A stretch of 64,000 bases of DNA from a virus: positions 32,001 through 96,000 of the IMG/VR virus record IMGVR_UViG_3300033233_000015. One strand, 5' to 3'. Every line of letters begins with the position of its first letter. Position 1 is the first letter of the stretch. The position numbers and the translations under genes are program-made. Positions 9,008 to 32,234 of the stretch are shown here, piece by piece. The notes beneath the pieces were generated by a model, which was not told the DNA's origin, did no database searches, and saw only the letters and a list, made by a program, of their open reading frames with translations.

Positions 9008-9246
9008 AAATATCGACCGTTGGGAATGGCCAAGCAAGATGGATGTCCACGCGAACCGCTGTACGCGAGACGCTCTACGAGGCGAAACGATCCATGACGA
9101 TCGAGGAGTTGGTGGAAGAGACGGAGGGAGCAGCATCGACCATTCGTAGTCACCTCGCTGATCTCGTATGGGACGGGCGTGTTGTTCGGATCGAAGATCA
9201 CCCCGTTCGTTACATTCATTCGTTTTGGGCCAAACAACGCACATGA
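9004..9246 (+). CDS. winged-helix DNA-binding protein
   Basis: MTIEELVEETEGAASTIRSHLADLVWDGRV. Confidence 0.65.
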   Translation: MKISTVGNGQARWMSTRTAVRETLYEAKRSMTIEELVEETEGAASTIRSHLADLVWDGRVVRIEDHPVRYIHSFWAKQRT

Positions 9247-9659
9247 AAGCCCTATCCCTCCGCCAGCCGTGGGCCGCGCTCGTCGTGCACTTCGGCAAGC
9301 ACATCGAGAATCGGCGCTGGAACACCTCGTTCCGTGGCGAGTTCCTCATCCACGCGGCCAAGGGCATGACGAATCGCGAGTTCGAGGAAGCGATGGACTT
9401 CGCGTTTGAGTTGATCGGCGACAAGTGCCCGACCGAAGCGCAGCTCCGATCGATGCTCATGTTCGGTGGCATCGTCGGTCGCGCGAATCTTGTCGATGTG
9501 ATTCCCCCGCGATCGATGTTCTATCCGTCGGGCGTCGAGCGCGGGTGGCACATGCCCGAGCAGTACGGCTTCGTCCTCGAGAGCGTCGCGCCGCTGACGT
9601 TCGAACCGATGCGCGGCGAGCTCGGGTTCTTCGAGGTTCGGAAGGTGGCCAATGTCTGA
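9243..9659 (+). CDS. ASCH domain protein
   Basis: KALSLRQPWA...GKHIENRRW..RGEFLIHA. Confidence 0.9.
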   Translation: MKALSLRQPWAALVVHFGKHIENRRWNTSFRGEFLIHAAKGMTNREFEEAMDFAFELIGDKCPTEAQLRSMLMFGGIVGRANLVDVIPPRSMFYPSGVERGWHMPEQYGFVLESVAPLTFEPMRGELGFFEVRKVANV

Positions 9660-12270
9660 CTACCGCATCCTCCAAGGCGACGCGCTCGAGCGTCTTCGCG
9701 AACTGCCGTCCGACTCGTTCGACGCGATGCTCTGCGATCCGCCGGCCGGAATTTCGTTCATGAACAAAAAGTGGGATGGCGATAAGGGCGGACGCGATCA
9801 GTGGATCGCGTGGCTCGCCGACGTCATGCGCGAGGCGAGGCGATGTTTGAAGCCTGGCGCGTACGCGCTCGTGTGGGCGCTTCCCCGCACGTCGCACTGG
9901 ACCGCGATGGCGATCGAGAACGCGGGCTTCGAGGTGCGCGATGTCGTCACGCATGTCTTCGGGTGTCTGAGCGATGACACCGAAATACTGCTCGATTCAG
10001 GGTGGACCCGCTACCGTAATATCGACGAAGGTGATCTCGCACTTTGCTACGATGCGGAGCATGACGAGTTCCGATGGCAGCGCGTCGAGGAAGTCGTCTC
10101 CTACGCCTACGCGGATACCGCCTTCCGTATTCGCTCGGATCGTACAGACCAGCTCGTCTCCCGCGAGCACCGCTGCCTCGTTGAACGAGATGGAGGCTAC
10201 GCTTTCGCGCGAGCAGACTCACTGGAACGCGAAGCGCGTGTACCCGTTCTGGAAGACGTGCACGAACTGCTCGCAGCCCTTCCCGTGCCATACGAGGGAA
10301 CAGGCGGTTCGGAACGCATCGTGTGCGGGGTGTCACGGATCGCTCATCTCGAAGGCGAAAAAGGGTGTCTACCGAACGCCCGCAGCGACATGCCTGCATT
10401 GTCGCAAGACGTTCCGTCGTCATCGAGGTCAGCCGACATCGCGCGCGAAATACTGCACCAAAAAATGTTGGGGAGCTGCACGGTCAGCGGACCCGAAGTT
10501 CGCGGCGAAGATGCGGAAGATCGGGGCATTGGGTCGGTCGGGATGGACGGCCGCGAGCGCGGACTCGTATCGGGAGAAGATGAGCGGAGCGAAGAATCCG
10601 GCCTGGCGGGGCGGAGTCACTTTCAAGCGGAACAAGGGGAACTACATCGGGCCGAAGTACGTGAGATGTCCGAAGGTGTTCGCCAAGATGTCGCGCAAGG
10701 ACGGCTACGTGATGGAGCATCGACTAGTCGTCGCTCAGCAGATCGGTCGCTCGCTGACGCGCACGGAGTCAGTGCACCACGAAGACCACAACACGCGGAA
10801 CAACTCACCATCGAACCTTCTGCTCTTCGCGACGAACCGAGATCACAAGCTGTACGAGGCGCACGGTTCACCCGCACCGATCTGGCGACTGTAGAGCCCG
10901 TTCTGTACGAGGGCATCGTCTGGTGCGTTCGGGTGCCGACGGGGGCGTTCGTCGCGCGTCGTAACGGCAAGGCGTTCGTCACGGGTAATTCTGGTTTCCC
11001 GAAGTCGCTCGATCTGTCGAAAGCGATCGACGCGCACTTCGGCGCCGAGCGCGAGGTCGTCGGCACGCGAACGCTGACGGGCAACGCAGCGGTCTCGACG
11101 AAGGAGAAGGGCGGCACGTACGGTGTGCAAGTCGGCACCGCGCCGGCGAAAGAGGTCGATGTGACGACGGCGGCGACGCCAGAGGCCGCTGCGTACGACG
11201 GCTACGGCACGGCGCTGAAGCCCGCCTCCGAGCACTGGATCCTCGCGCGCAAGCCGCTCGAGGGGACGTACGCGGAGAACGCGTTGAAGTGGGGGACGGG
11301 AGGGATCGCGATCGATGCGTGCCGCATCGGATACGCCAGCGAGGGCGATCAAGCAGCAGCAGCGCAACGAGCGTGCCACGATCAGAACGCGGGTCGCACG
11401 GCCTACGGCGACTTCAACAACGGCGCAGCGTCGCTGCCTGGCTACTTCGAGAAGCAGGCGCTCGGCCGATGGCCCGCGAACCTCATGCTGTCGCACGCGG
11501 ACGGGTGCGAGCGGACCGGCTCGTCGACGTCGATACGATCCGTACCGCGCGGCGTCTCGGTGCGAAATAACAAGAACGCGATCTACGGCCCTGGCCTCGG
11601 CGGTCGGCCGGAAAAGGTCGAAGAGGTCGAAGAGGTCGAAGAGGTCGAAGAGGTCTTCTCGTGCGTCTCGGGATGCCCTGTCAAGCTCCTCGACGAACAG
11701 AGCGGCGATCGTCCCGGCATGTCCGGCGGCGGCGCGCACCACTCGGAGTACGAGGGCGGCATGTTCGGCGCGATCGACTCGACGTCGACGGCGCGCGCGG
11801 ACACGGGCGGCGCGTCGCGCTTCTTCTACGTCGCCAAGGCCAGCCGCTTCGAGCGCGAGCTCGGATGCGAACATCTTCCGAAGAAGTCGGCGGGCGAGAT
11901 GGTCGATCGCGAGGACGAGAGCGACGGTATGAAGAGCCCACGCGCTGGCGCGGGCCGCACGGGCGGAGCGCGCAACCATCACCCCACGATCAAGAGCGTC
12001 GCGCTCGCGACGTACCTGGCAAAGCTCATCAAGCCGCCGAAGTCCGCGAGGCTGCTCAATCCGTTTGCCGGATCGGGCACCGAGGGCATCGGCGCGATGC
12101 GCGCGGGCTTCGACGAGATCGTCTGCATCGAACTAGAGCCCGAGTACGTCGCCATCGCCGAAGCTCGCTTCGCGCGATGGTCGGAGATCCCCACGCACGT
12201 CAACCCGCAGGAGTCCAAACCCGCGAAGGTGGACGAGCGGCAGGCGTCGCTCTTCGGAGGTTCGCGATGA
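9652..12270 (+). CDS. N4-cytosine/N6-adenine DNA methyltransferase (beta class) containing an intein
   Basis: DPPAGISFM, GFPKS, ALKPASEHW, HPTIKS, NPFAGSGT. Confidence 0.85.
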   Translation: MSDYRILQGDALERLRELPSDSFDAMLCDPPAGISFMNKKWDGDKGGRDQWIAWLADVMREARRCLKPGAYALVWALPRTSHWTAMAIENAGFEVRDVVTHVFGCLSDDTEILLDSGWTRYRNIDEGDLALCYDAEHDEFRWQRVEEVVSYAYADTAFRIRSDRTDQLVSREHRCLVERDGGYAFARADSLEREARVPVLEDVHELLAALPVPYEGTGGSERIVCGVSRIAHLEGEKGCLPNARSDMPALSQDVPSSSRSADIAREILHQKMLGSCTVSGPEVRGEDAEDRGIGSVGMDGRERGLVSGEDERSEESGLAGRSHFQAEQGELHRAEVREMSEGVRQDVAQGRLRDGASTSRRSADRSLADAHGVSAPRRPQHAEQLTIEPSALRDEPRSQAVRGARFTRTDLATVEPVLYEGIVWCVRVPTGAFVARRNGKAFVTGNSGFPKSLDLSKAIDAHFGAEREVVGTRTLTGNAAVSTKEKGGTYGVQVGTAPAKEVDVTTAATPEAAAYDGYGTALKPASEHWILARKPLEGTYAENALKWGTGGIAIDACRIGYASEGDQAAAAQRACHDQNAGRTAYGDFNNGAASLPGYFEKQALGRWPANLMLSHADGCERTGSSTSIRSVPRGVSVRNNKNAIYGPGLGGRPEKVEEVEEVEEVEEVFSCVSGCPVKLLDEQSGDRPGMSGGGAHHSEYEGGMFGAIDSTSTARADTGGASRFFYVAKASRFERELGCEHLPKKSAGEMVDREDESDGMKSPRAGAGRTGGARNHHPTIKSVALATYLAKLIKPPKSARLLNPFAGSGTEGIGAMRAGFDEIVCIELEPEYVAIAEARFARWSEIPTHVNPQESKPAKVDERQASLFGGSR
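9964..10989 (+). mobile_element. intein (342 aa) in the DNA methylase
   Basis: FG|CLSDDTEIL N-junction; block B SREHRC; VWCVRVPTGAFVARRNGKAFVTGN|S C-junction; splicing restores HVFG-SGFPKS. Confidence 0.9.
10190..10894 (+). CDS. HNH endonuclease with zinc fingers, in the +1 frame inside the intein
   Basis: CTNC, CAGC, CLHC..YCTKKC, NPAWRGG, GYVMEHRLV, VHHEDHNTRNNSPSNL. Confidence 0.85.
   Translation: MEATLSREQTHWNAKRVYPFWKTCTNCSQPFPCHTREQAVRNASCAGCHGSLISKAKKGVYRTPAATCLHCRKTFRRHRGQPTSRAKYCTKKCWGAARSADPKFAAKMRKIGALGRSGWTAASADSYREKMSGAKNPAWRGGVTFKRNKGNYIGPKYVRCPKVFAKMSRKDGYVMEHRLVVAQQIGRSLTRTESVHHEDHNTRNNSPSNLLLFATNRDHKLYEAHGSPAPIWRL
11611..11655 (+). repeat. in-frame 9-nt tandem repeat (GAAGAGGTC x4 plus one variant)
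   Basis: encodes EKV-EEV-EEV-EEV-EEV within the methylase. Confidence 0.9.
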
Positions 12271-12686
12271 CCGACCAGCGCCCCAAAGTGGTGACCGACC
12301 AGCCCGCCACCCGCACCTACAACGAGATCACTCCGTCGATGCGCGCGTTCATCGGGACGCGCGAGGTGCTTCGCCGCATCGGCTACAGAGCCGACGATCT
12401 CTACTGCATGACGGCGCGCAGCGCGAAGCTGCGCGGCGCGATCAGCGCGTTCTGCGTTCTGAGGACGCAGGGCAAGGAGTTCTCGGTCGAGCTCGGAGCC
12501 ATCGACAGCGAGCCGAAGTTCGCCGACGAGTACAAGATCATCGCGTACGTCGTCAACGCGGGCGGGATCCCGAAGCCCGATCTCGATCGCATGTATAACG
12601 AGTGCGAGGCGCGACAGAACGTCGTCGATCTGGTGATGGCGATTCAGGCAAAGGGGATCCTTCTCCCGAGCGAGATGCTTCGATGA
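12267..12686 (+). CDS. hypothetical protein
   Basis: GGAGG RBS, coupled start. Confidence 0.6.
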   Translation: MTDQRPKVVTDQPATRTYNEITPSMRAFIGTREVLRRIGYRADDLYCMTARSAKLRGAISAFCVLRTQGKEFSVELGAIDSEPKFADEYKIIAYVVNAGGIPKPDLDRMYNECEARQNVVDLVMAIQAKGILLPSEMLR

Positions 12687-13186
12687 AGTCGCCGTGGACC
12701 ATCTCGTGGAGAGCGGACCCGCGCGCGCGTGCGATCGCCGACCGCCACTACAACAGACAGAACCCTGGCTCACCGCAGTTCGTGCCGCCTGGAAAGCCGC
12801 TCGTTCTTCTGACCGACGACGCGCGCGCGCTCTGGATCTCGCACTGGCCGATCGCCGAGTACGTGAAGCACGAGTGGGCGGGCGCGTGGATGTGCACCTG
12901 CTTCCGAAACGAAGCGCGCGAGGTCTACCTGTCGAGCGATCTCATTCGCGCTGCGGTGGCGGCGACGATCGCGGAGTGGGGCACACCTCCCGAGCTCGGG
13001 ATGGTGACGTTCGTCGATCCCGAGAAGACGCACAAGAAGCGCGATCCGGGTCGCTGCTTTCGGAAAGCGGGCTTCCGCGTCGTCGGCCGCACCAAGGACA
13101 AGAACCTCGTCGCGTTGCAACTCTTGCCGTCGGAGATGCCCGAACCACTCGCGCCTCTCTCGACGCAGATCGGACTATTCGCATGA
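12683..13186 (+). CDS. putative Mom-like/GNAT-type DNA modification protein
   Basis: ADRHYNRQ, CTCFRNE, TFVDP, PGRCFRKAGF (GxxY/FxAAG-like acyl-CoA motif); inside the modification cluster. Confidence 0.5.
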   Translation: MKSPWTISWRADPRARAIADRHYNRQNPGSPQFVPPGKPLVLLTDDARALWISHWPIAEYVKHEWAGAWMCTCFRNEAREVYLSSDLIRAAVAATIAEWGTPPELGMVTFVDPEKTHKKRDPGRCFRKAGFRVVGRTKDKNLVALQLLPSEMPEPLAPLSTQIGLFA

Positions 13187-13358
13187 TGACGCCCGAACAG
13201 AACCGAGATCGAATCCTGGCGCGGATCGACGCGATCATGAACCAACCGTACAAGGCTCCCGAGCGCATCAAGTCGGAGCTCTACGCCTTCATGATCGAAG
13301 AGTTCCGCGCGTGCTCGGAAGCGACGCTGCGGGCGGTTCGTGACGGGAAGGTCAAGCC

Positions 13359-14036
13359 GTGAACAATCCGAACGCGGTCGTTCTTCTCTCGGGAGGCATG
13401 GACTCGGTGGCGGCGCTCTATTGGGCGCGGACGCGGTACGACCGCGTCTTCGCCGTGTCGTTCGACTATGGTCAGCCGAACCGCGACGCCGAACTGTACG
13501 TAGCGGGGACGTGCGCGAAGGGGCTCGACATCAAGTGGGATCGGCTCGTCCTGGCGGGGCTTCCTCGAGCGGGGCTCCTCGATCACATCGAGCCGCACAA
13601 CGACGCGAAACCGATCAACGCCGCGTTCGTGCCCGGCCGGAACCTCGTCTTCCTCACGCTGGCGGCGGGCCGTGCGACGTCTCTCTGCCCGAACGGCAAC
13701 ATCGATCTCGTCATCGGAGCGTGCGTCGACGACGCGCGCGGGTTCCCCGACTGCCGCGCGACGACGCTGGCGAAGCTCGGCGAGGCGCTGCGTGCGGGCA
13801 TGGCGAGGGAGATCCAAATCGTCTCGCCGTGGATCGATCGCACCAAGACGCAGATCCTCGACTCGCTCGACGGAGCTGCGCGTATCGCCGTCGCACGATC
13901 GTGGTCGTGCTACCGAGGCACGGGGCCGTGCGGCGAATGCTCGGCCTGCGTCGCACGCGCACGCGCGTTCGCCGCTGCGCATCTTCGCGATGAATCCTCG
14001 ATGCCCATCATGACGGGCGGGGACGGTGCGCGATGA
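13359..14036 (+). CDS. queC: 7-cyano-7-deazaguanine synthase
   Basis: LLSGGMDS, FDYGQ, VPGRN, FPDC, SWSCY, CGECSAC. Confidence 0.9.
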   Translation: MNNPNAVVLLSGGMDSVAALYWARTRYDRVFAVSFDYGQPNRDAELYVAGTCAKGLDIKWDRLVLAGLPRAGLLDHIEPHNDAKPINAAFVPGRNLVFLTLAAGRATSLCPNGNIDLVIGACVDDARGFPDCRATTLAKLGEALRAGMAREIQIVSPWIDRTKTQILDSLDGAARIAVARSWSCYRGTGPCGECSACVARARAFAAAHLRDESSMPIMTGGDGAR

Positions 14037-14758
14037 AGGCGTTCTTCGCGATCGGTGATGCGCACACGGGGATCAAGTTCCTGTCGGACAAGCGCGTCCT
14101 CTTCAGTTTCGCGTACGTCGGAACCAACTGGCTCCCGAATCACAAGCTCGCGGAGGTCTGCGCGGGCTCGCCTGAGGTGATGATCGATTCTGGCGTGTTC
14201 ACGGCCTGGAAGCAGGGGAAGACCATCGAGCTCGAAACGTACGTCGATTGGCTCAAGAACACCGCGCCAGCGTTTCGGTGGTGCATGGCGCTCGACGTCA
14301 TCACGGACGCGAAGGCGTCGCTCGCGCAGTGGCGCAAGATGATCTCCTCGGCGCCGACGCTCGCCTCCAGCATCGTGCCGGTGTGGCACGAAGGCGATCC
14401 GCTCGACATCCTCGACGAGTACGTCTCGCTCTCGGAGCTCGTCGCTCTCGGCCGCATCGAGGGTCGCCGATCGGAGCAGAAGACGTACGAGTTCTACGAC
14501 GCGGCGTTCAATGCCTACCCTGAGGGCAGGTTTCACGCGCTCGGTCAAGCGAACCCCGTGCACCTAGAGCCGTATCCGTTCGCGTCGTTCGACTCGACGG
14601 GATGGCAGCGCGACGCAGCGTACTCGAACGCGGCGAGGTGGCCGTTCAACCGCTGCTCGAAGGAGACGCGGCTTCGCGCGTACATCGAGGCCATCGAAAC
14701 GATCGAGCACAAGCCGCCGAAGCAGTTGAGCCTCGCGATGGGGAGGAGGACGGCGTGA
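14033..14758 (+). CDS. TGT-fold / DpdA-like guanine transglycosylase
   Basis: IDSGVFT, LDVI, VPVWH, FHALG, SFDSTGW; coupled to queC. Confidence 0.7.
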   Translation: MKAFFAIGDAHTGIKFLSDKRVLFSFAYVGTNWLPNHKLAEVCAGSPEVMIDSGVFTAWKQGKTIELETYVDWLKNTAPAFRWCMALDVITDAKASLAQWRKMISSAPTLASSIVPVWHEGDPLDILDEYVSLSELVALGRIEGRRSEQKTYEFYDAAFNAYPEGRFHALGQANPVHLEPYPFASFDSTGWQRDAAYSNAARWPFNRCSKETRLRAYIEAIETIEHKPPKQLSLAMGRRTA

Positions 14759-15126
14759 GCAAGCACGAAGAACGCGCGCGGCGGGTGAACGCATCGACTT
14801 GTCCCGCTCAGGAGAGCAACGATCCGAAGGATTGCAACTGCGTCGAAACACTCGTTGCCGAGTTCGACGCGGTAGAGGCGGAGGCGAAGTCCGCCGAGCC
14901 TGGCGGAGTAGATCGCATCGTGCCGCTGTCGAACGGCGACATCGAAGTATGGAGCGACGGGCACGCGCATACTTACTCGCCGACCTCACGACTCGTCGCT
15001 GCTGAGGATGATGTAGCGCGGTTGCGAACTGCGCTGACGAACATGCTGGAGACGCAACTCTCGAAGTCGAGCGAGGGTGATCGGCATCGGGACCAGGCGC
15101 GCGACGTGATGAGGAGGACCGCGTGA
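14755..15126 (+). CDS. hypothetical protein
   Basis: GGAGGA RBS, coupled GTG start. Confidence 0.45.
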   Translation: MSKHEERARRVNASTCPAQESNDPKDCNCVETLVAEFDAVEAEAKSAEPGGVDRIVPLSNGDIEVWSDGHAHTYSPTSRLVAAEDDVARLRTALTNMLETQLSKSSEGDRHRDQARDVMRRTA

Positions 15127-15304
15127 AAGATCGAGTGAGAGGCGCGCTCGTCATCGCTCTCGTGGTCGCGTACTGCATCGCGATCATGCACGACTTCTAC
15201 TATCTGCGCACCGCGCGTCCGCACGAGATCGGGTGGTGTCTGCAATGATGATCATTGGCATCGGGGGCTTGACATCGTCGACCGTTCCGTGGCATTGGTG
15301 GTTG

Positions 15305-15754
15305 GTGCCGCGCGGAGCGAAGCCAAAAATCTACGACAAGGGTCTCGTTGCGCGCGTAACCGATTTGTACGCGGGTGGGATGACGCAGACCGAAGTGGCC
15401 GCTGCGGTCGGGCTCACGCAGAAGGTCGTGTGGAAGTTGATGCTTCGTCACGGAATCAAGGCGCGCGTCGCGGCGAAACGAGATCAGCGAGGTCCGAAAA
15501 ATTCCACATGGAAAGGTGGGCAGGCTCGATATGCAGCCCTGCATCTTCGGGTCGCGACCGTTCGCGGTAAGCCGAAGCGATGCGGGGACTGCGGGACCAC
15601 GAAGGCGAAACGATACGAGTGGGCAAACCTGACGGGTCGCTACGACGACGTGAACGATTACAGACGGCTATGCGTTTCCTGTCATCACAAGATGGACGGA
15701 ACCGTCCGCAACCTTGGGGCGCACACCAAGAGAAAGGGTACTCGCCCGAGATGA
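15305..15754 (+). CDS. HNH endonuclease with N-terminal HTH
   Basis: MTQTEVAAAV HTH; WKGG, CGDCG, WANL..RRLCVSCHHKMD. Confidence 0.8.
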   Translation: MPRGAKPKIYDKGLVARVTDLYAGGMTQTEVAAAVGLTQKVVWKLMLRHGIKARVAAKRDQRGPKNSTWKGGQARYAALHLRVATVRGKPKRCGDCGTTKAKRYEWANLTGRYDDVNDYRRLCVSCHHKMDGTVRNLGAHTKRKGTRPR

Positions 15755-17152
15755 TGACGATTGGTTCATTGTTCTCGGGCATAAGTAGGCGGCCTCGAGT
15801 TGGGGCTTGAGCGCTCGGGCTTCGGCCCCGTCGTCTTCCAGTGCGAGATCGATCCGTTCTGCCGCAGCGTGCTCGCAAAGCACTGGCCCGACGCAAAGAG
15901 GTATGAGGATGTCCGATCCATTGACGAGTCCGCTCCACGAGTCGACGTCCTCTGCGGAGGATTCCCTTGCACGGACATCAGCGTCGCTGGAAGGGGAGCG
16001 GGACTCGAGGGAGAGCACTCCGGGCTCTGGTTCGAGTTCGCTCGCATCATTCGCGTTCTACGACCGCGGATCGTTGTTGCCGAAAACGTGGCAGCTCTCC
16101 TTGGTAGGGGAATCGATCGTATACTCGGAGACCTTTCCTCGCTCGGGTACGATGCGGAGTGGTCGACTCTACGAGCGAGCGACTTGGGCGCGCCGCACCT
16201 CAGGGATCGCGTCTTCATCATCGCGTGGAGGGTGGCCGACGCCGACGGCGAACGACTGGAAGGGGCCGAACCTCAGCGGGAGCGGGACGGCGAGCTCGAA
16301 CTCGCTGTCGACGAAGGTAGCGTTGTGGCCGACGCCGAACGCAGCGAGGGGGCAGACGCTCCCCGAGGAAGCGTCGGACACGGGAGCGATGCCCGACGGC
16401 TCGAAGCGTCAGTTCGGTCTTCGCGAAGCGGTGAAGCGATCGACATGGCCGACGCCACGAGCTCACGATGCGGAGTCGCCGGGCGGATTCGATCGAGCGA
16501 CGGAGGGCGGCCCGAGCTTGGCGACGGCGGTGCGATTGTGGCCGACGCCCGACGCTTCGATGGTGACGGGCGGTCGGACGCTGCCGTCGGACTGCTCGGA
16601 TACGGGGCGCATGCCCGACGGGACGAAGAGACAGATGGGGCTGCGCGAGGCGGTGAAGCGCTCGACGTGGCCGACGCCGACAGCGGGCGATGCGAAATCA
16701 TCGGGATCGAGGAACCTCGAAGGCTCGGATGCACATCAGGGGATCTCGCTGACGGATCTGGTGCTGCACGGAGGCTCGACGATCGGCCGCCGTGGGACGA
16801 CGACGTGGCCGACACCGAGCGCGACGCCGTACGGATCGAGTCAGAACGGGGTGAACAGCGACAGACCGAGTGCGGGGACTCCGTCGCTCGAGACGAGCGC
16901 GAAGAAGGAGGGCGGCGTCCTGAATCCGTCGTGGGTCGAGTGCCTGATGGGATTTCCGATCGGGTACACCGATGGCCTGCCGGTCCCGACGAAGAGCAGT
17001 ACGAGTGGGAGCCGCCGCGCGCGCTCCCCAAAGGCCGACACCCCAACCGAGCCGCACGACTGAAGGCGCTCGGCAACGCGGTCGTGCCGCAGCAGGGCGA
17101 GGTTGTCGGTCGAGAGGTGCATCGGATTCTTGCTGAGCGAGGTGTGATGTGA
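15751..17152 (+). pseudogene. C5 cytosine DNA methyltransferase alpha chain with a 4-nt insertion in motif I
   Basis: MTIGSLFSGI + [AGTA 15784-15787] + GGLELGLE; GGFPCTD, ENV, RDRVF, RLKALGNAVVPQ. Confidence 0.75.
15807..17063 (+). CDS. overlapping +1-frame methyltransferase beta chain (WPTP repeats, motif IX-like); start uncertain
   Basis: six WPTP units and LNPSWVECLMGFPIGYTD. Confidence 0.7.
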   Translation: MSARASAPSSSSARSIRSAAACSQSTGPTQRGMRMSDPLTSPLHESTSSAEDSLARTSASLEGERDSRESTPGSGSSSLASFAFYDRGSLLPKTWQLSLVGESIVYSETFPRSGTMRSGRLYERATWARRTSGIASSSSRGGWPTPTANDWKGPNLSGSGTASSNSLSTKVALWPTPNAARGQTLPEEASDTGAMPDGSKRQFGLREAVKRSTWPTPRAHDAESPGGFDRATEGGPSLATAVRLWPTPDASMVTGGRTLPSDCSDTGRMPDGTKRQMGLREAVKRSTWPTPTAGDAKSSGSRNLEGSDAHQGISLTDLVLHGGSTIGRRGTTTWPTPSATPYGSSQNGVNSDRPSAGTPSLETSAKKEGGVLNPSWVECLMGFPIGYTDGLPVPTKSSTSGSRRARSPKADTPTEPHD

Positions 17153-17895
17153 TCGCGCTGTTCAGGCGGGGCACCCTCAAGCTCGAAATGTATCTCGTGG
17201 ACGCCTTCGGAAATAGGCTTCCAACGAACCAAGGAATCGCCGTCGCTGGCTATTTCCCGAGTCTTCCGCCGACACCAGCGCCGACGGGGATCCCCGTCTT
17301 GTCGCCAGGCAGGCGTCTCTGCTCTGGCTGCCAGCAGGTTCGACCCCTCGCCGAGTTCGGTTACGGCGGTCACGACGGCCACGCGCGCGCCGCGCGATGC
17401 GCGTCGTGTCGCCGCGCGAATCCGTACGCTCGCATGGGTGAACGCGAGTGCGAACGATGTGGATGTCGAACCGACGCCGCTGGTGGCGTCTGTCGATTCT
17501 GTCAGGAACGAGAAGGTCAGAAGGAGAACGATCATGGATAAGAAAGAGTTGTGGCTCAGGTTTGCGTGTGCGGCTTTGGCGAACCTCGAGACGGGAGACG
17601 ACATCGACGACGACGCGGAAGACGTCGCGAAGCTCGCCGACGCGATGGTCGAGGAGTACGAAGAGCGGTTCGCCACCCCCCGTCGGCGCCGCGGCAAAGA
17701 AGGAGACTGATCGATGGCTCAGTTCTTCGTGCCGATCGACGTCGCGATCGAAGCTCGTGATCGCGAAGACGCCTTTCGTCAGGCGAGCAGCGTCCAAGCG
17801 CTCGTGAAGAACCCCTTCGTCCGAGGTCAACTCGAGAACGAGGGGGTTCAGGTCAAGAAGATCACCGTCTTCATGCCGCAAGAGAAACCGAGGGT

Positions 17896-18765
17896 GTGAC
17901 CATGGGAACGAAAGATACTCGCGCGGCACACGGGGCTTCGGGCAAGAGGGACGTCCTCTTGTTCGATCCCGACGACTTGGTGCTCGTCACCGATCCGAGC
18001 CACCCGCTCTACCAGCCGTCGGTCAACGCTCCGCCCGAAGAGGCCGACGTGCTCAACATCATGCACTACGGCATCATCGAACCGATCGTCGTGCGCAAGA
18101 ATCCCGAGACGGGCGAGACCGAGGTCGTCGCGGGACGGACGCGAACCAAGGCGCTTCGCGAGGCGAACCGCCGCCTCAAGGCGCGAGGCGACAAGCCGCA
18201 CATGATGCCAGCCATCGCCAAGCGCGGTGAGATTTCGATGCTCGCGGGCGTCATGGTGAGCGAGAACGCCATCCGACGCACGTACTCCCCCATGGAGCGC
18301 GCGAACGAGATGAAGAAGCTCGCCGACATGAACTTCTCGGACGAGGACATCGCCGTCACGTTCGGGCTGAAATCGGTCACGAGCGTCAAGACGGCGATGG
18401 CGGTCCTCGACGCGACCAAGACGGTGCGTGACGCCGTCGACTCGGGCAAGGTCACGTTCGCGCAGGCCGCGAAGCTGGCGTCACTGCCGCCCGACGATCA
18501 GCGCGCGAAGATCGAGGAGATCGACAAGATCGGCGCCGTCAACGGCAAGCGCAACGGCAGCGCGCGACAGCGAGCTCAGTTCGTCAACGATGGCCCCGTC
18601 GCTCGCGGCAAGCGAGAAGTCGAGAAGAAACTCGAAGCGCTCAAGGGAGAAGACGTTCCCGCGAAACTCGACGCTCACCGAGTTCGGCACTGGCGAGAGG
18701 CGCTTGAGTGGTATCTCGGCGAGGAGAACGCGCTCTGTTCGGTGGTGGCGAGCGATGGCGACTAG
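17896..18765 (+). CDS. ParB/Srx-like nuclease-domain protein with HTH
   Basis: GIIEPIVVR, VAGRTRTKA, ENAIRRTYSPMERA. Confidence 0.8.
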   Translation: MTMGTKDTRAAHGASGKRDVLLFDPDDLVLVTDPSHPLYQPSVNAPPEEADVLNIMHYGIIEPIVVRKNPETGETEVVAGRTRTKALREANRRLKARGDKPHMMPAIAKRGEISMLAGVMVSENAIRRTYSPMERANEMKKLADMNFSDEDIAVTFGLKSVTSVKTAMAVLDATKTVRDAVDSGKVTFAQAAKLASLPPDDQRAKIEEIDKIGAVNGKRNGSARQRAQFVNDGPVARGKREVEKKLEALKGEDVPAKLDAHRVRHWREALEWYLGEENALCSVVASDGD

Positions 18766-19138
18766 GCGCAAACCGTACGTCGCGCCGAAGATCGTCATCC
18801 TGCCGACGACGATGGTGGTTTCTCGTCCGCGCTGGAAGGAGTTCCTCTCTCGCATGGAGGGGAAAGAGGGCTGCAACTTCCGCGAGGATCCGAAGAAGCT
18901 AGAGACCCGCAAGGAGAGCGCGCGGTTCGGCAAGCCTCGGATCGTTTGGAACTGCGAGCACACCCTGAATATCGCCTCGCGACTGCTTCGAAAGATGGGC
19001 TTCGATGTCGAATCGTCGCTCACTTACTTCCGCAGCCGCGGCGGCTACTGCGACTGCGAAGTGCTCTTCAACGTGCCGCGTCGACGTCGTCGCGGGCGAC
19101 AGCGACGGCGCATTCGGAAGAAGGGATCACCGTCATGA
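18755..19138 (+). CDS. DUF2695-like protein
   Basis: YFRSRGGYCDCEVLFN. Confidence 0.7.
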   Translation: MATRRKPYVAPKIVILPTTMVVSRPRWKEFLSRMEGKEGCNFREDPKKLETRKESARFGKPRIVWNCEHTLNIASRLLRKMGFDVESSLTYFRSRGGYCDCEVLFNVPRRRRRGRQRRRIRKKGSPS

Positions 19139-19603
19139 CGCGGCACTTTTCGTTCTGGTGCGAGTCATGCCCGACGCGCGTTCTGGTGGAGACGGAGGTG
19201 TCCGCAGCTTCCTGCTATCCCGATCCTGAGTACGTGGGCGCGATGGACGGAGTGGCCACCGCACGTATCCGTCCGCCTGTAGAACACGATGACGGGCTTG
19301 AGATCGCTGATCTCTGCCCCGCGGACGGCGGGCAGCTGCACTGCCTCGACGAACTGATCGGTCGAGGCCTCATCCCGCATCACGACGACATCGACTCTCC
19401 GAATCTGCACGCAGGTTGGATCGAGAAAAGAAAGGCGAGTGCGTGAACTCGCGTCGCCCGTGCCCCGACTGCGGCGAACCGGTCGAGGTTCGCCGCTCGG
19501 AGTCGGAGGGGAACTATCCAGGCGCGATGGTGATCTTGGGCTTCGAGATCAAGTGCGGTCCCGAACACGAACGACGATGCCGATACTACAAGGAGAAGAC
19601 ATC

Positions 19604-19891
19604 ATGAGCGCTCGAGGCAAGGCAAGGAAGTTGGTCCGTCTCGCTACGGACAAGGGGACACCGGACAACGAAGCGATGGCCGCCGCGATGACGGCATGCA
19701 GGATCATCAACGAGAACGATCTGCTCGACGACGAAGGCGAGGGTGGTATCGGATCGATCATCAGCGGCGCTGGTCTCGACGAAGATCAGGTCGAAGCCGC
19801 CACATCGATCTTCAAGAAGCTCTCCGATCCCGAGTTCGTCTCGTCGGTGAAGAAGATCGCGCGTTCGCTCATGCGGGGGAGGCGGAGGTGA
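19604..19891 (+). CDS. DUF2786-like protein
   Basis: KARKLVRLATDKGTPDNEAMAA. Confidence 0.5.
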   Translation: MSARGKARKLVRLATDKGTPDNEAMAAAMTACRIINENDLLDDEGEGGIGSIISGAGLDEDQVEAATSIFKKLSDPEFVSSVKKIARSLMRGRRR

Positions 19892-20290
19892 ACCGCGACA
19901 CGCGACGACGTGCCGAGCGTCGCGCTGAAGGCGTCTGTATTCGGTGCGGCAAATGGGAGATCGCGCGCGAGCGATCACGATCACGGTGCGGCGACTGCCT
20001 CGAATACCAACGGACACGAAACGAGCGAGCGAGGAGACGATGAGCTGGCACGCGCGATGGGGAAAACCCGATCCGTTCAAGAAGCCGGTCAAGGTCGGCG
20101 AGCGAATCGGACCATGGGAGGTGCTCGGCGAAGTTCGCGCGCACGCGCACTACGGTGTTCAAATCAAGGCGCGATGCATCGTCTGCGGGGTCACGCGCAT
20201 CCACGTTCAGACGCGCTTGCGGTACGCGGCGAAGAAGGCGAAGCGCGGTGGCGTCGCGCTCGGTCACAAGGGATGCGGAAAGACGAAGCG

Positions 20291-20818
20291 ATGATCTCCA
20301 CCACATGCATCGTGTGCGGCGGGTTCGCGACCGAGTGGTGTGCTCGGCTCGAGCATCGCGCGTTCGCGTCGAGCATCACGCCGAAGATGGAGCCGCACTG
20401 CCGCGAGCACGGGATGGTGAGATTCTTAGACGACTCGAAGCGTGTCGATTGGGCCGCGCGTCTCGCCGTCGTCAAGAGCGACTGGTATCGCGTGCTCAAG
20501 TTCTGCAGCATCGAGCCCGCCTTCAACGACTCGATGACGGATTCGCTCGCGGTCGAACGGTACATCAAGGAGCTTCAGATCGCCCTCGACCTCGCGGGCA
20601 CCGTCATGTGTCTCATGTGCACGCGCACCGATCACACGACAGCCGAGCACGAGCGGCTCGCGGAGATGAGCCCGCAGCCCTCTGGCGGCATCGAGGCGAT
20701 GCGCAAGGGCGAGTTGAAGAAACTTCGCAAGATCGCAGAGGCGGCCCGAGACGTCGTCGATTCGACGGAGGACGTCTTCGCCGAGCTCAACGAACTGCTC
20801 CGAGAGGCTGGCTACTAG
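20291..20818 (+). CDS. hypothetical protein with Cys/His motifs
   Basis: CIVCG, CREH, CLMC; coupled start. Confidence 0.5.
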   Translation: MISTTCIVCGGFATEWCARLEHRAFASSITPKMEPHCREHGMVRFLDDSKRVDWAARLAVVKSDWYRVLKFCSIEPAFNDSMTDSLAVERYIKELQIALDLAGTVMCLMCTRTDHTTAEHERLAEMSPQPSGGIEAMRKGELKKLRKIAEAARDVVDSTEDVFAELNELLREAGY

Positions 20819-21275
20819 TGGGCGCCGTAGATATCTTCTCCGCGACGGAGCCGTGCGAGTATGAGGGCTCGCGCAAGGTGATCTCGCGCGACGGACACGC
20901 TTCACCGCTGCTCTGCGTCGCGCATGCGGAGGAGTGGTTCAAGAACGTGCCCGGCTGCACGCACATCGCGCGTCCGAGGCTCCTTCCGGGCGAGGGAGAA
21001 TCGCACCCCTGCCAAGCGAACTGGCCGTTCACGGGGGCTGTACCAGGATGAAGAAAGGATCGGATCATGACGCCTAGAGAATTGGGTGGAGCAATCACGC
21101 GCGCGGAGGACGTGTTCGTTTGGGTGGGGTACACCCGAGACAAGGGGGTGTTCATTCGCGTCCCGAAGCCGGCGGCGAGAGAGATTGTGGACGAGGCGAA
21201 AGCCGAAGAGGTGACGAACGTCGAGGCGCACGCCTCCGGCAACGAAGTCTTCATTGGCCATTCGCCGCCGTACTG

Positions 21276-22163
21276 ATGCTCTCCCTACCTTCCGAACTCG
21301 CAGGTCTTCCGCTCGTCGCGTCCGTGAGCGGAGGCAAGGATTCGACGGCGCTCATCCTCGCGCTGCTCGAGGCGGGGCTCGTGACGCGCTACGTCTTCGC
21401 CGACACGGGATGGGAAGCGCCAGAGACGTACACGTACCTCGACACGCTCCGCACGAAGCTCGGGATCGTGATCGACGTAGTGGGCGTGCCAGGAGGGATG
21501 CTCGCCATCGCGACGAAGAAGGCGGGCTTCCCTCAGCGCAAGGGGCGGTGGTGCACCGAGAAGCTCAAGATGATTCCGATCCGCGAATACCACCGCGCGA
21601 TCGGCGCCGACGTCGTCAACGTGGTCGGCGTCCGCGCGGAAGAGAGCGCGAAGCGGGCGGCGATGTCGGAACTCGAGGACGACGCCGAATGGGGCGGGTG
21701 GGTGTGGAGACCGCTGCTTCGATGGAGCGTCGCGGAGGTGCTGGCGATCCACCATCGACACGGCGTCCCCGTGAACCCGCTCTACAAGCGCGGTCACAAC
21801 CGCGTCGGCTGCTACCCGTGCATCAACGCCGACAAGGAAGAGATCCGCCTCGTCGCCGAACACTCGCCCGAGCGCATCGACGAGATTCGGGCGCACGAGC
21901 TGGCGCAGAGCACCGAGCGCGCGCGCCGCAACACGAGCGGCGAAGGAAACTTCAAGCATCTGACCTCGACGTACTTCAGTGCGCGTGAGTCGCTCGGACC
22001 GCGCGGCATCGACGAGGTCGTGGAGTGGTCGCGCACCGACCACGGCGGCAAGCAGCTGCCGCTCCTCGCTTCCGTTCCGAGCGGCGGATGTATGCGATGG
22101 GGTCTCTGCGAACCGCCGACGACGGAAGGAGAAGGAGAAGACGATGCAGCACAAGGAAATTGA
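21276..22163 (+). CDS. PAPS reductase family protein
   Basis: SVSGGKDS, DTGWE, RWCTEKLK, GVRAEES, RVGCYPC. Confidence 0.9.
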   Translation: MLSLPSELAGLPLVASVSGGKDSTALILALLEAGLVTRYVFADTGWEAPETYTYLDTLRTKLGIVIDVVGVPGGMLAIATKKAGFPQRKGRWCTEKLKMIPIREYHRAIGADVVNVVGVRAEESAKRAAMSELEDDAEWGGWVWRPLLRWSVAEVLAIHHRHGVPVNPLYKRGHNRVGCYPCINADKEEIRLVAEHSPERIDEIRAHELAQSTERARRNTSGEGNFKHLTSTYFSARESLGPRGIDEVVEWSRTDHGGKQLPLLASVPSGGCMRWGLCEPPTTEGEGEDDAAQGN

Positions 22164-31589: not shown

Positions 31590-32234
31590 GTGATGGACTT
31601 CGGGAGCGAACTCTCTTTCGGTGGTCGTTCCGTCGAAGGATTCGGGCTCGGCACGTTTCTTCGCCAGCCGTCCGTCGAGGATCTTCGCAACCTCATCAAC
31701 GCCAAAGACTACGAGCTGAATCAAATCTACAAGCACTACATGGCCTTCTGGCAGATGTGGGAGACCGTAGATTTGCCGGCCAAGCTCGATTGGGCCAACG
31801 ACTGGAACGCGCTTCTCGCAAGATACAAGAAGGCAAAGGAGACCGCGCAGTGGGCGTTCGACAAGGCGGCGGGGCAGCCGTGGCCGGACTCGGTCATCCT
31901 GGCTCCCGACGAATGGAACACCGTGCTTCGAGCGCTGAGAAAAAATTGGGACGGCAAGACGGGGGGTACGCTGGAGAAGGGTGATGAGGCCGATCTCGAA
32001 TTTCGCCTTTCGGCTGCGAGCCACAAGAGCAGCGACTTCTCGCACGAGCCGCAACCGACGGGCGACGTCGATCTCGAGATTTTCAAAGCCGCCGACAAGG
32101 CGACCAAGGGGATCGAAACCGTCGCGGGTAAAATCGCCAACTACGTCCCGATCGGACTCGCCATCGGGGCAGGCATCTTGGTGCTCGTAGCGGGGGCCTA
32201 CGTCATCGCTCTCTTGCCCAAGTCGAGATCATGA
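31590..32234 (+). CDS. tail-anchored membrane protein with GGRSVEGFGLG leader
   Basis: helical body, C-terminal TM. Confidence 0.7.
   Translation: MMDFGSELSFGGRSVEGFGLGTFLRQPSVEDLRNLINAKDYELNQIYKHYMAFWQMWETVDLPAKLDWANDWNALLARYKKAKETAQWAFDKAAGQPWPDSVILAPDEWNTVLRALRKNWDGKTGGTLEKGDEADLEFRLSAASHKSSDFSHEPQPTGDVDLEIFKAADKATKGIETVAGKIANYVPIGLAIGAGILVLVAGAYVIALLPKSRS

Follow-up and report, generated by a model that had tools for sequence, protein, structure and literature searches.

Inteins that carry their endonuclease in another reading frame (EndoVII-like, in frame 3) or in antisense orientation have been described in actinophages by Gosselin, Arsenault, and Gogarten (bioRxiv 10.1101/2025.01.02.630785). 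The hosts of these noncanonical inteins are DNA polymerase, minor capsid, large terminase, and thymidylate synthase genes of cultured actinophages, and the origin proposed there is a free-standing endonuclease gene invading an intein. In addition, Arsenault, Gosselin, and Gogarten reported the ShiLan domain, an out-of-frame HNH in the gp65 methylase of mycobacteriophage ShiLan without a splicing element (Genes 2025, PMC11855218). Here, we describe an intein of a DNA methylase gene that carries an HNH endonuclease gene in its +1 frame. It lies in a stretch of 64,000 nucleotides (the window; positions 32,001 to 96,000 of IMG/VR virus record IMGVR_UViG_3300033233_000015), which is part of a 110-kb uncultivated viral contig. 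Coordinates below are those of the window unless a locus handle precedes them, and the parts of the methylase ORF and of the HNH gene lie on its plus strand.

The element of the window combines known features, namely, an HNH_3 gene at +1 inside a methylase intein, and is not among the cases of the two 2025 papers. As in the inteins of Gosselin et al., the splicing blocks enclose an endonuclease open reading frame (ORF) that is on the same strand and in another frame, and the host frame is open and specifies a product without a recognizable fold. However, their endonucleases are EndoVII-like and in frame 3, whereas the window has a zinc-finger HNH_3 protein at +1 in an N6/N4 methylase, found in uncultured phages with a guanine-plus-cytosine (GC) content of 32 to 66%. 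The ShiLan domain belongs to the same methylase family and is likewise a hidden HNH in another frame of a stop-free methylase frame. In ShiLan gp65 (L001:2783-3370), a 195-amino-acid HNH ORF occupies an alternative methylase frame, +2 by coordinates, downstream of a LAGLIDADG intein. The ShiLan domain layout is common to about 20 intein-less relatives (e.g., L052 and L067). It differs from the window in having no splicing element, in lying further downstream, and in its +2 frame, whereas the HNH of the window is inside a Hint intein at +1. The intein of ShiLan gp65 and Bobi gp73 occupies the same site as that of the window (..YG↓C...TGN↓SGFPKS; arrows mark the junctions) and has homologous Hint blocks, with DNA matches spanning the site, but it carries an in-frame domain with LAGLIDADG-like motifs at the endonuclease position.

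Two further systems share single features with the window. In fractured genes, a free-standing endonuclease gene separates the two halves of a split intein (Dassa et al. 2009, PMC2677866). There, too, an endonuclease gene of the free-standing type takes the intein's endonuclease position; however, the host gene is in two ORFs and relies on trans-splicing, whereas the window keeps a single host ORF because no stop interrupts the host frame within the endonuclease DNA. Among phage HNH homing endonucleases, I-HmuI (1u3e) has an HNH catalytic core that is the best, though weak, structural match to that of the window, but it is encoded by a group I intron and has other DNA-binding modules.

Anatomy of the intein and the nested HNH gene

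The ORF at 9652..12270 encodes an N6/N4 DNA methyltransferase of 872 amino acids (Pfam N6_N4_Mtase, E value of 2.8e-12; phrog_67, E value of 2e-32) and is single and unbroken across the intein. Its N-extein (9652..9963) comprises the N-terminal part of the methyltransferase with the DPPA motif region and ends in ...HVFG. The C-extein (10990..12270) contains the rest of the enzyme, with matches to phrog_3008 and phrog_498 (DNA methyltransferase) and an S-adenosylmethionine (AdoMet) motif near the C terminus, and begins with SGFPKS, whose serine would act as the Ser+1 nucleophile. The intein between them, of 342 amino acids from Cys1 to Asn342 (9964..10989), is in the methylase frame, with TGT (Cys) at 9964-9966, AAT (Asn) at 10987-10989, and TCT (Ser) from 10990; it is entered after ...HVFG and left through ...VTGN. 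Its boundaries rest on invariant residues, on the junction in intein-less alleles, and on the Hint fold. All 38 homologues share C1, H69 (block B), C321, F329, and N342, as well as Ser+1, and intein-less methylase alleles are colinear over the junction (..YG↓SGFPK.. versus ..FG↓C...N↓SGFPKS in the window).

We modeled the intein with AlphaFold from a 38-row alignment in the host frame. The Hint N-terminal lobe (residues 1 to 110, blocks A and B; 9964..10293) was predicted to consist entirely of beta strands, with block means of pLDDT (predicted local distance difference test) of 94 to 98 for residues 1 to 100 and 85 for residues 101 to 110. Beta strands also make up the Hint C-terminal lobe (residues 297 to 342, blocks F and G, ending in ...VTGN; 10852..10989), where pLDDT was 91 to 98 from residue 301. 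A Foldseek search matched the model to solved inteins and mini-inteins and to hedgehog Hint domains with a probability of 1.00 and E values down to 9e-6. Between the lobes, the host frame specifies a read-through linker (residues 111 to 296; 10294..10851) that has no family match and is predicted to be disordered: residues 114 to 293 nearly all had pLDDT below 50, without secondary structure. The top fold match was a class 3 split intein, which made class 3 (WCT) a candidate, but it was ruled out: Cys1 is present, position 12 of block B is Cys rather than Trp, and block G has no Thr at the expected position. The element is a class-1-type intein at the conserved methylase site ..(Y/F)G↓SGFPKS.

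The +1 frame is open from 9971, and its stop-free stretch from the first ATG to the TAG at 10892-10894 comprises 306 codons (9974..10894). The minimal HNH endonuclease ORF within it starts at ATG 10190 and encodes 234 amino acids (10190..10894). Its product matched Pfam HNH_3 (PF13392; 27.9 bits against a cut-off of 24.8, E value of 1.8e-6) and ten PHROG families (best E value of 3.6e-14), of which nine carry the annotation HNH endonuclease; the phrog_20891 alignment spans residues 22 to 216 of the 234. The HNH_3 catalytic core (His-Asn-His; 10718..10840, residues 177 to 217) is preceded by a putative zinc-finger DNA-binding region (10259..10468) with eight invariant cysteines in four pairs, three CxxC and one CxxxC (C55, C58, C76, C79, C99, C102, C120, and C124 in HNH alignment A2). 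The catalytic columns E207-H208-R209, H227, N236, N240, and H250-K251 of A2 are invariant as well, and the alignment holds 44 invariant columns altogether, including all zinc cysteines and the catalytic His, Asn, and His.

An AlphaFold model of the +1-frame protein, begun at 10097, had a mean pLDDT of 86.6. The best structural match (VIA) of its catalytic part was I-HmuI (1u3e), a weak match with a Z score of 4.9 and a root-mean-square deviation of 3.8 Å over 69 residues; Foldseek with the whole HNH model found nothing in PDB at an E value of ≤0.001. For the N-terminal two thirds, with the four cysteine pairs, we found no clear solved relative, and a profile search of PDB sequences gave weak zinc-finger matches only. 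Upstream of ATG 10190, the model contains two predicted helices (model residues 9 to 17 and 22 to 36; 10121..10204; pLDDT of about 84 to 97) that might form an N-terminal HNH module and that overlap Hint block B (10144-10194) of the host frame; whether this stretch is translated in the window is uncertain.

A preliminary description of the window, made from the sequence, had proposed a clean intein (C...TGN↓S) in the methylase, a nondomain center, and a complete zinc-finger HNH endonuclease running from ATG 10190 to TAG 10894 in the +1 frame. The coordinates of the intein were right to the base, and the Hint fold and motifs agree with them; the center had no Pfam or NCBIfam match and was modeled with pLDDT below 50. 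Scans of both frames with hidden Markov models returned HNH_3 in the +1 frame, alongside the PHROG matches, and no curated Pfam or NCBIfam match in the intein frame.

Two observations concern the rest of the locus. A short acidic tandem repeat (EKVEEVEEVEEVEEV) occurs at about 11600 to 11650 in the C-extein, immediately ahead of a CxxxC motif, and served as a seed pattern of our locus finder. Directly upstream of the methylase, a gene for 163 amino acids (9168-9659) overlaps the methylase start.

Selection on both reading frames

We determined the diversity per codon position from a codon alignment of 38 inteins with their flanks. Host position 3 was the most variable (0.56 to 0.76) in both exteins and across Hint blocks A, F, and G, and positions 1 and 2 were conserved; in the C lobe, the diversity of position 3 was 0.62 to 0.69, again with conserved positions 1 and 2. 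Across intein residues ~103 to 307, host position 1, which is position 3 of the HNH frame, was the most variable (0.56 to 0.69), and host positions 2 and 3 dropped as low as 0.07 and 0.01, respectively. Because the peak of variability switches to HNH position 3 there, the center of the intein evolves as an HNH gene, with the host frame constrained only to remain open. The HNH-frame constraint was clear from about 10225 onward in the high-GC relatives. Farther upstream, in block B (residues 59 to 77), the suppression of synonymous host sites was strong in the low-GC relatives and weak among those of high GC, including the window; in the low-GC relatives, many fourfold sites of block B had a diversity of 0.00 to 0.19, compared to about 0.7 in blocks F and G.

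We further shuffled synonymous codons in each HNH ORF, keeping the protein and its codon usage, and counted stops in the host frame. The shuffles predicted 4 to 17 host-frame stops per locus and 383 over the 38 loci; none was observed in any of the 38. For the window, in DNA of 61 to 64% GC, a shuffle had on average 4.1 intein-frame stops, and only 0.35% of the shuffles were stop-free (P = 0.0035); across the 38 loci, the probability of zero stops was at most 0.0035 per locus. The third frame contained 2 to 22 stops per locus, near the shuffle expectation. The HNH stop sat 95 nucleotides before the end of the intein in 27 of the 38 loci. These data show that the feature is real and that both frames are under selection.

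Two loci depart from the usual end of the HNH frame, and in both of them the frame overlaps Hint blocks F and G. In L037 it runs past the usual stop and ends 17 nucleotides before the end of the intein, and in L043 it extends 28 nucleotides beyond the intein end.

Relatives, distribution, and mobility

A scan of IMG/VR with the HNH protein yielded 80 loci with 37 to 67% identity in the best-matching segment and a GC content of 0.32 to 0.66. In 79 of these, the HNH lies in the host +1 frame of a much larger open ORF, and the host ORF was of this methylase family at every locus whose flanks were read. About 58 of the viral loci have the HNH within this intein, at the identical site (..YG↓CLSEDTE ... 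TGN↓SGFPKS). Of 18 loci from genome assemblies of bacteria and archaea, 17 had the same +1 layout; the loci are mostly on short contigs of metagenome-assembled genomes from many phyla, and the element is therefore chiefly a phage element. The deposited phage genomes gave one full-length HNH match in 50,697 records. The finding that both frames are open, already made in the preliminary description, extends to nearly all of these loci. The out-of-frame HNH architecture is old, diversified, and selected, and the element is a widespread addition to a kind first published in 2025 that is common in uncultured phages.

In about 20 relatives, an HNH of the same family, again at +1, is inserted straight into the methylase, between SGFPKS and GTALKP, without an intein. 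The viral loci of this type are L052, L055, L057, L059, L061, L063, L065, L067, L068, L076-L079, L081-L083, L038, and L049, and those from genome assemblies are L112, L113, L115, and L116. At many direct-insert loci, host-frame CxC ... CxxC motifs flank the HNH insert and might form a zinc ribbon tying its ends together. The preliminary description had explained the tolerance of the read-through peptide by its removal through splicing; the intein is indeed present in the window, but because about 20 intein-less relatives carry the HNH at +1 in the methylase, splicing is not the only way in which such a peptide is tolerated.

Several pairs of loci differ far more in their exteins than in the element. 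For L007 and L010, the extein identity was 62%, compared to 95% for Hint and 89% for the HNH; for L023 and L033, it was 30%, compared to 79% for Hint. The distribution of the intein is patchy, with many intein-less or HNH-less methylase alleles. The discordance between intein and exteins fits a movement of intein and HNH as a unit.

Relatives of the HNH also occur outside methylase frames. L054 is a free-standing HNH relative, and annotated free-standing HNH genes include mycobacteriophage Jabbawokkie gp30 and others, at 32% identity. In the Curtobacterium pusillum plasmid pCPAA3 (L111:996-3046), an intein-less methylase of this family (996-2132) is followed directly by an HNH relative in a long frame of its own. 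Other members of the same intein lineage bear an in-frame LAGLIDADG-type domain, namely, those of ShiLan, Bobi, and L085. The AT-rich phage contig L085 has the same intein (L085:3382-4347) at the identical methylase site, with an in-frame LAGLIDADG_3 domain (E value of 2.7e-6), and both alternative frames are full of stops. The Pfam LAGLIDADG_3 match was significant only there and was weak in ShiLan (E value of 0.12), whose alternative frames carry a few stops. Because one intein lineage bears both endonuclease types, the HNH form is an endonuclease swap within that lineage. The preliminary description had suggested that a free-standing HNH invaded a mini-intein out of frame. Such an invasion is plausible, given the free-standing relatives and the LAGLIDADG form of the lineage, but the layout is not a one-off recent accident. 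Each of the two contexts, intein and direct insertion, may have had a single origin; a tree of the HNH core (69 rows, 106 columns) has too few columns to count moves between them.

Proposed mechanism, its alternatives, and significance

Taken as a whole, the element is very probably an intein with a separately translated +1 HNH homing nuclease, the read-through peptide of which is spliced out. On this account, the HNH gene (HNH_3, zinc finger) in the +1 frame occupies the intein's usual endonuclease position. Ribosomes that translate the methylase would stay in the host frame across the HNH DNA, giving a disordered linker of ~185 residues between the Hint lobes; protein splicing would then excise the whole 342-amino-acid intein and restore the methylase. 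The HNH protein would be produced on its own, by ribosomes that initiate internally on the same mRNA. Most likely, it would be a homing endonuclease that cuts intein-less methylase alleles, by which intein and HNH would spread as one unit. Selection keeps the HNH residues and favors those HNH codons that give no stop in the host frame.

Several observations weigh against this account. As regards the intein, the peptide of the intein frame matched no Pfam or NCBIfam profile, including Intein_splicing/Hint and intein_Nterm/Cterm; the best Hint profile was Hint_2 on the N lobe (E value of 0.019), with 15.8 bits, below the cut-off of 28.4, and the intein call is based on structure, motifs, and homology. 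The penultimate residue, Gly341, is invariant in the 38 sequences and is not the usual block G His. A penultimate His is common in inteins but not obligatory, and some active inteins are without it. As regards expression, the window has ACG at the conserved ATG position (see below) and no ATG-plus-Shine-Dalgarno start; a Shine-Dalgarno search found no convincing site before 10052, 10061, 10181, or 10190, and a promoter and terminator scan of 9400-11200 found none. Finally, where distant exteins flank very similar Hint sequences, the similarity may stem in part from dual-coding constraint and not from transfer.

The best-surviving alternative is that the HNH has been domesticated and coupled to the methylase, in a restriction-modification-like role or as an exclusion weapon against unmethylated phages, and is nested for coinheritance. 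The HNH family lies in or next to one methylase family wherever the host was assigned, in three layouts (in the intein, inserted directly, and immediately downstream), as would suit such a partnership, and the preliminary notes place the methylase in a dense DNA-modification gene cluster. In those notes, the cluster spans 9243-22163 and comprises ASCH, Mom-like, QueC, TGT/DpdA-like, and C5 methylase genes. However, an association with one gene family is equally expected of a site-specific homing endonuclease, and the patchy distribution, with its many intein-less and HNH-less alleles, as well as the several pairs in which intein and HNH are far more alike than the exteins, speak against domestication. 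We therefore regard it as improbable, though it deserves more weight than the other alternatives.

A second alternative concerns how the HNH is translated. A programmed +1 ribosomal frameshift from the methylase/intein frame would yield a fusion of N-extein, Hint N lobe, and HNH and would account for the +1 offset of every relative, whether an intein is present or not. It would also suit the window, with no convincing Shine-Dalgarno sequence or start. Four candidate starts were found there in the +1 frame: ATG 10052, ATG 10061, TTG 10181, and ATG 10190. ATGs at the 10052/10061 position recur in high-GC relatives, and TTG 10181 is conserved in most relatives. ATG 10190, the start given in the preliminary description, does open the 234-amino-acid ORF, but it is only one of these candidates, and low-GC relatives start upstream of it. 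In at least 11 low-GC relatives, an ATG lies 144 to 153 nucleotides upstream of the first zinc finger, behind an AAGGAG/AGGAGG-type Shine-Dalgarno sequence, and the ORF from this start overlaps Hint block B. In the five of these that were read at the nucleotide level, the ATG lies just past in-frame stops, and the host-frame residues under the Shine-Dalgarno sequence differ. Since those amino acids vary between loci, selection seems to act on the RNA signal itself. Intein-less relatives, in turn, have a Met 5 to 12 residues ahead of the first zinc finger. These positions favor internal initiation over frameshifting. Moreover, inspection of the aligned junctions by eye showed no conserved slippery or stall motif, although no dedicated motif search was made, and the constant offset is also explained by an inherited cassette with one alternative frame cleared of stops. 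Frameshifting is thus an unlikely source of the HNH protein.

Less probable still is that the second frame is open by accident in DNA of 61 to 64% GC and that the HNH is a decaying remnant. High-GC DNA does have few off-frame stops, and the shuffle expectation for the window was only 4; however, stop-free shuffles of the window were rare, relatives at 32 to 46% GC have no stops where 10 to 17 are expected, and the invariant columns of the HNH frame, with the zinc cysteines and catalytic residues among them, bear the signature of purifying selection. An artefact of two compensating assembly indels that shifted an ordinary in-frame HNH intein out of frame, conceivable for an uncultivated IMG/VR contig and named in the preliminary description as what would undo its reading, is effectively refuted, because it cannot recur in about a hundred independent assemblies from many samples (79 of 80 viral contigs and 17 of 18 genome-assembly loci with the same frame relation) or set both frame boundaries at conserved positions, such as that of the HNH stop.

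The simplest explanation of the constant +1 offset would be a stop-free alternative frame inherited with the HNH cassette. A more specific proposal, about which we are evenly divided with a slight lean against it, is that the HNH is a frame-transparent mobile cassette whose alternative frame has been purged of stops, that it always sits at +1, in an intein or directly, and that its 5' end overprints the folded block B. If so, a stop-free frame that travels with the cassette would explain the constant +1 in ~58 intein loci and ~20 direct loci, and block B and a helical nuclease module would be two structured proteins from the same ~45 codons. The arrangement would then stand beside split inteins as a stable alternative and would let inteins acquire endonucleases of new types.

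The locus also bears on the study of overlapping genes. It offers natural, well-sampled dual coding on one strand (~700 nucleotides), with cleanly separated selective regimes, and should be useful for testing methods that detect overlaps. Because gene callers annotate the methylase only and miss the nuclease, such nucleases are under-counted in phage genomes.

The two reports of 2025 dealt with cultured actinophages only; our data add a large family from uncultured phages. They show that a single polypeptide need not contain both an intein and its homing nuclease; a nuclease gene of the free-standing type can lodge in an intein in another frame and persist over long divergence. This supports the view of intein origins in which the splicing element came first and the endonuclease later.

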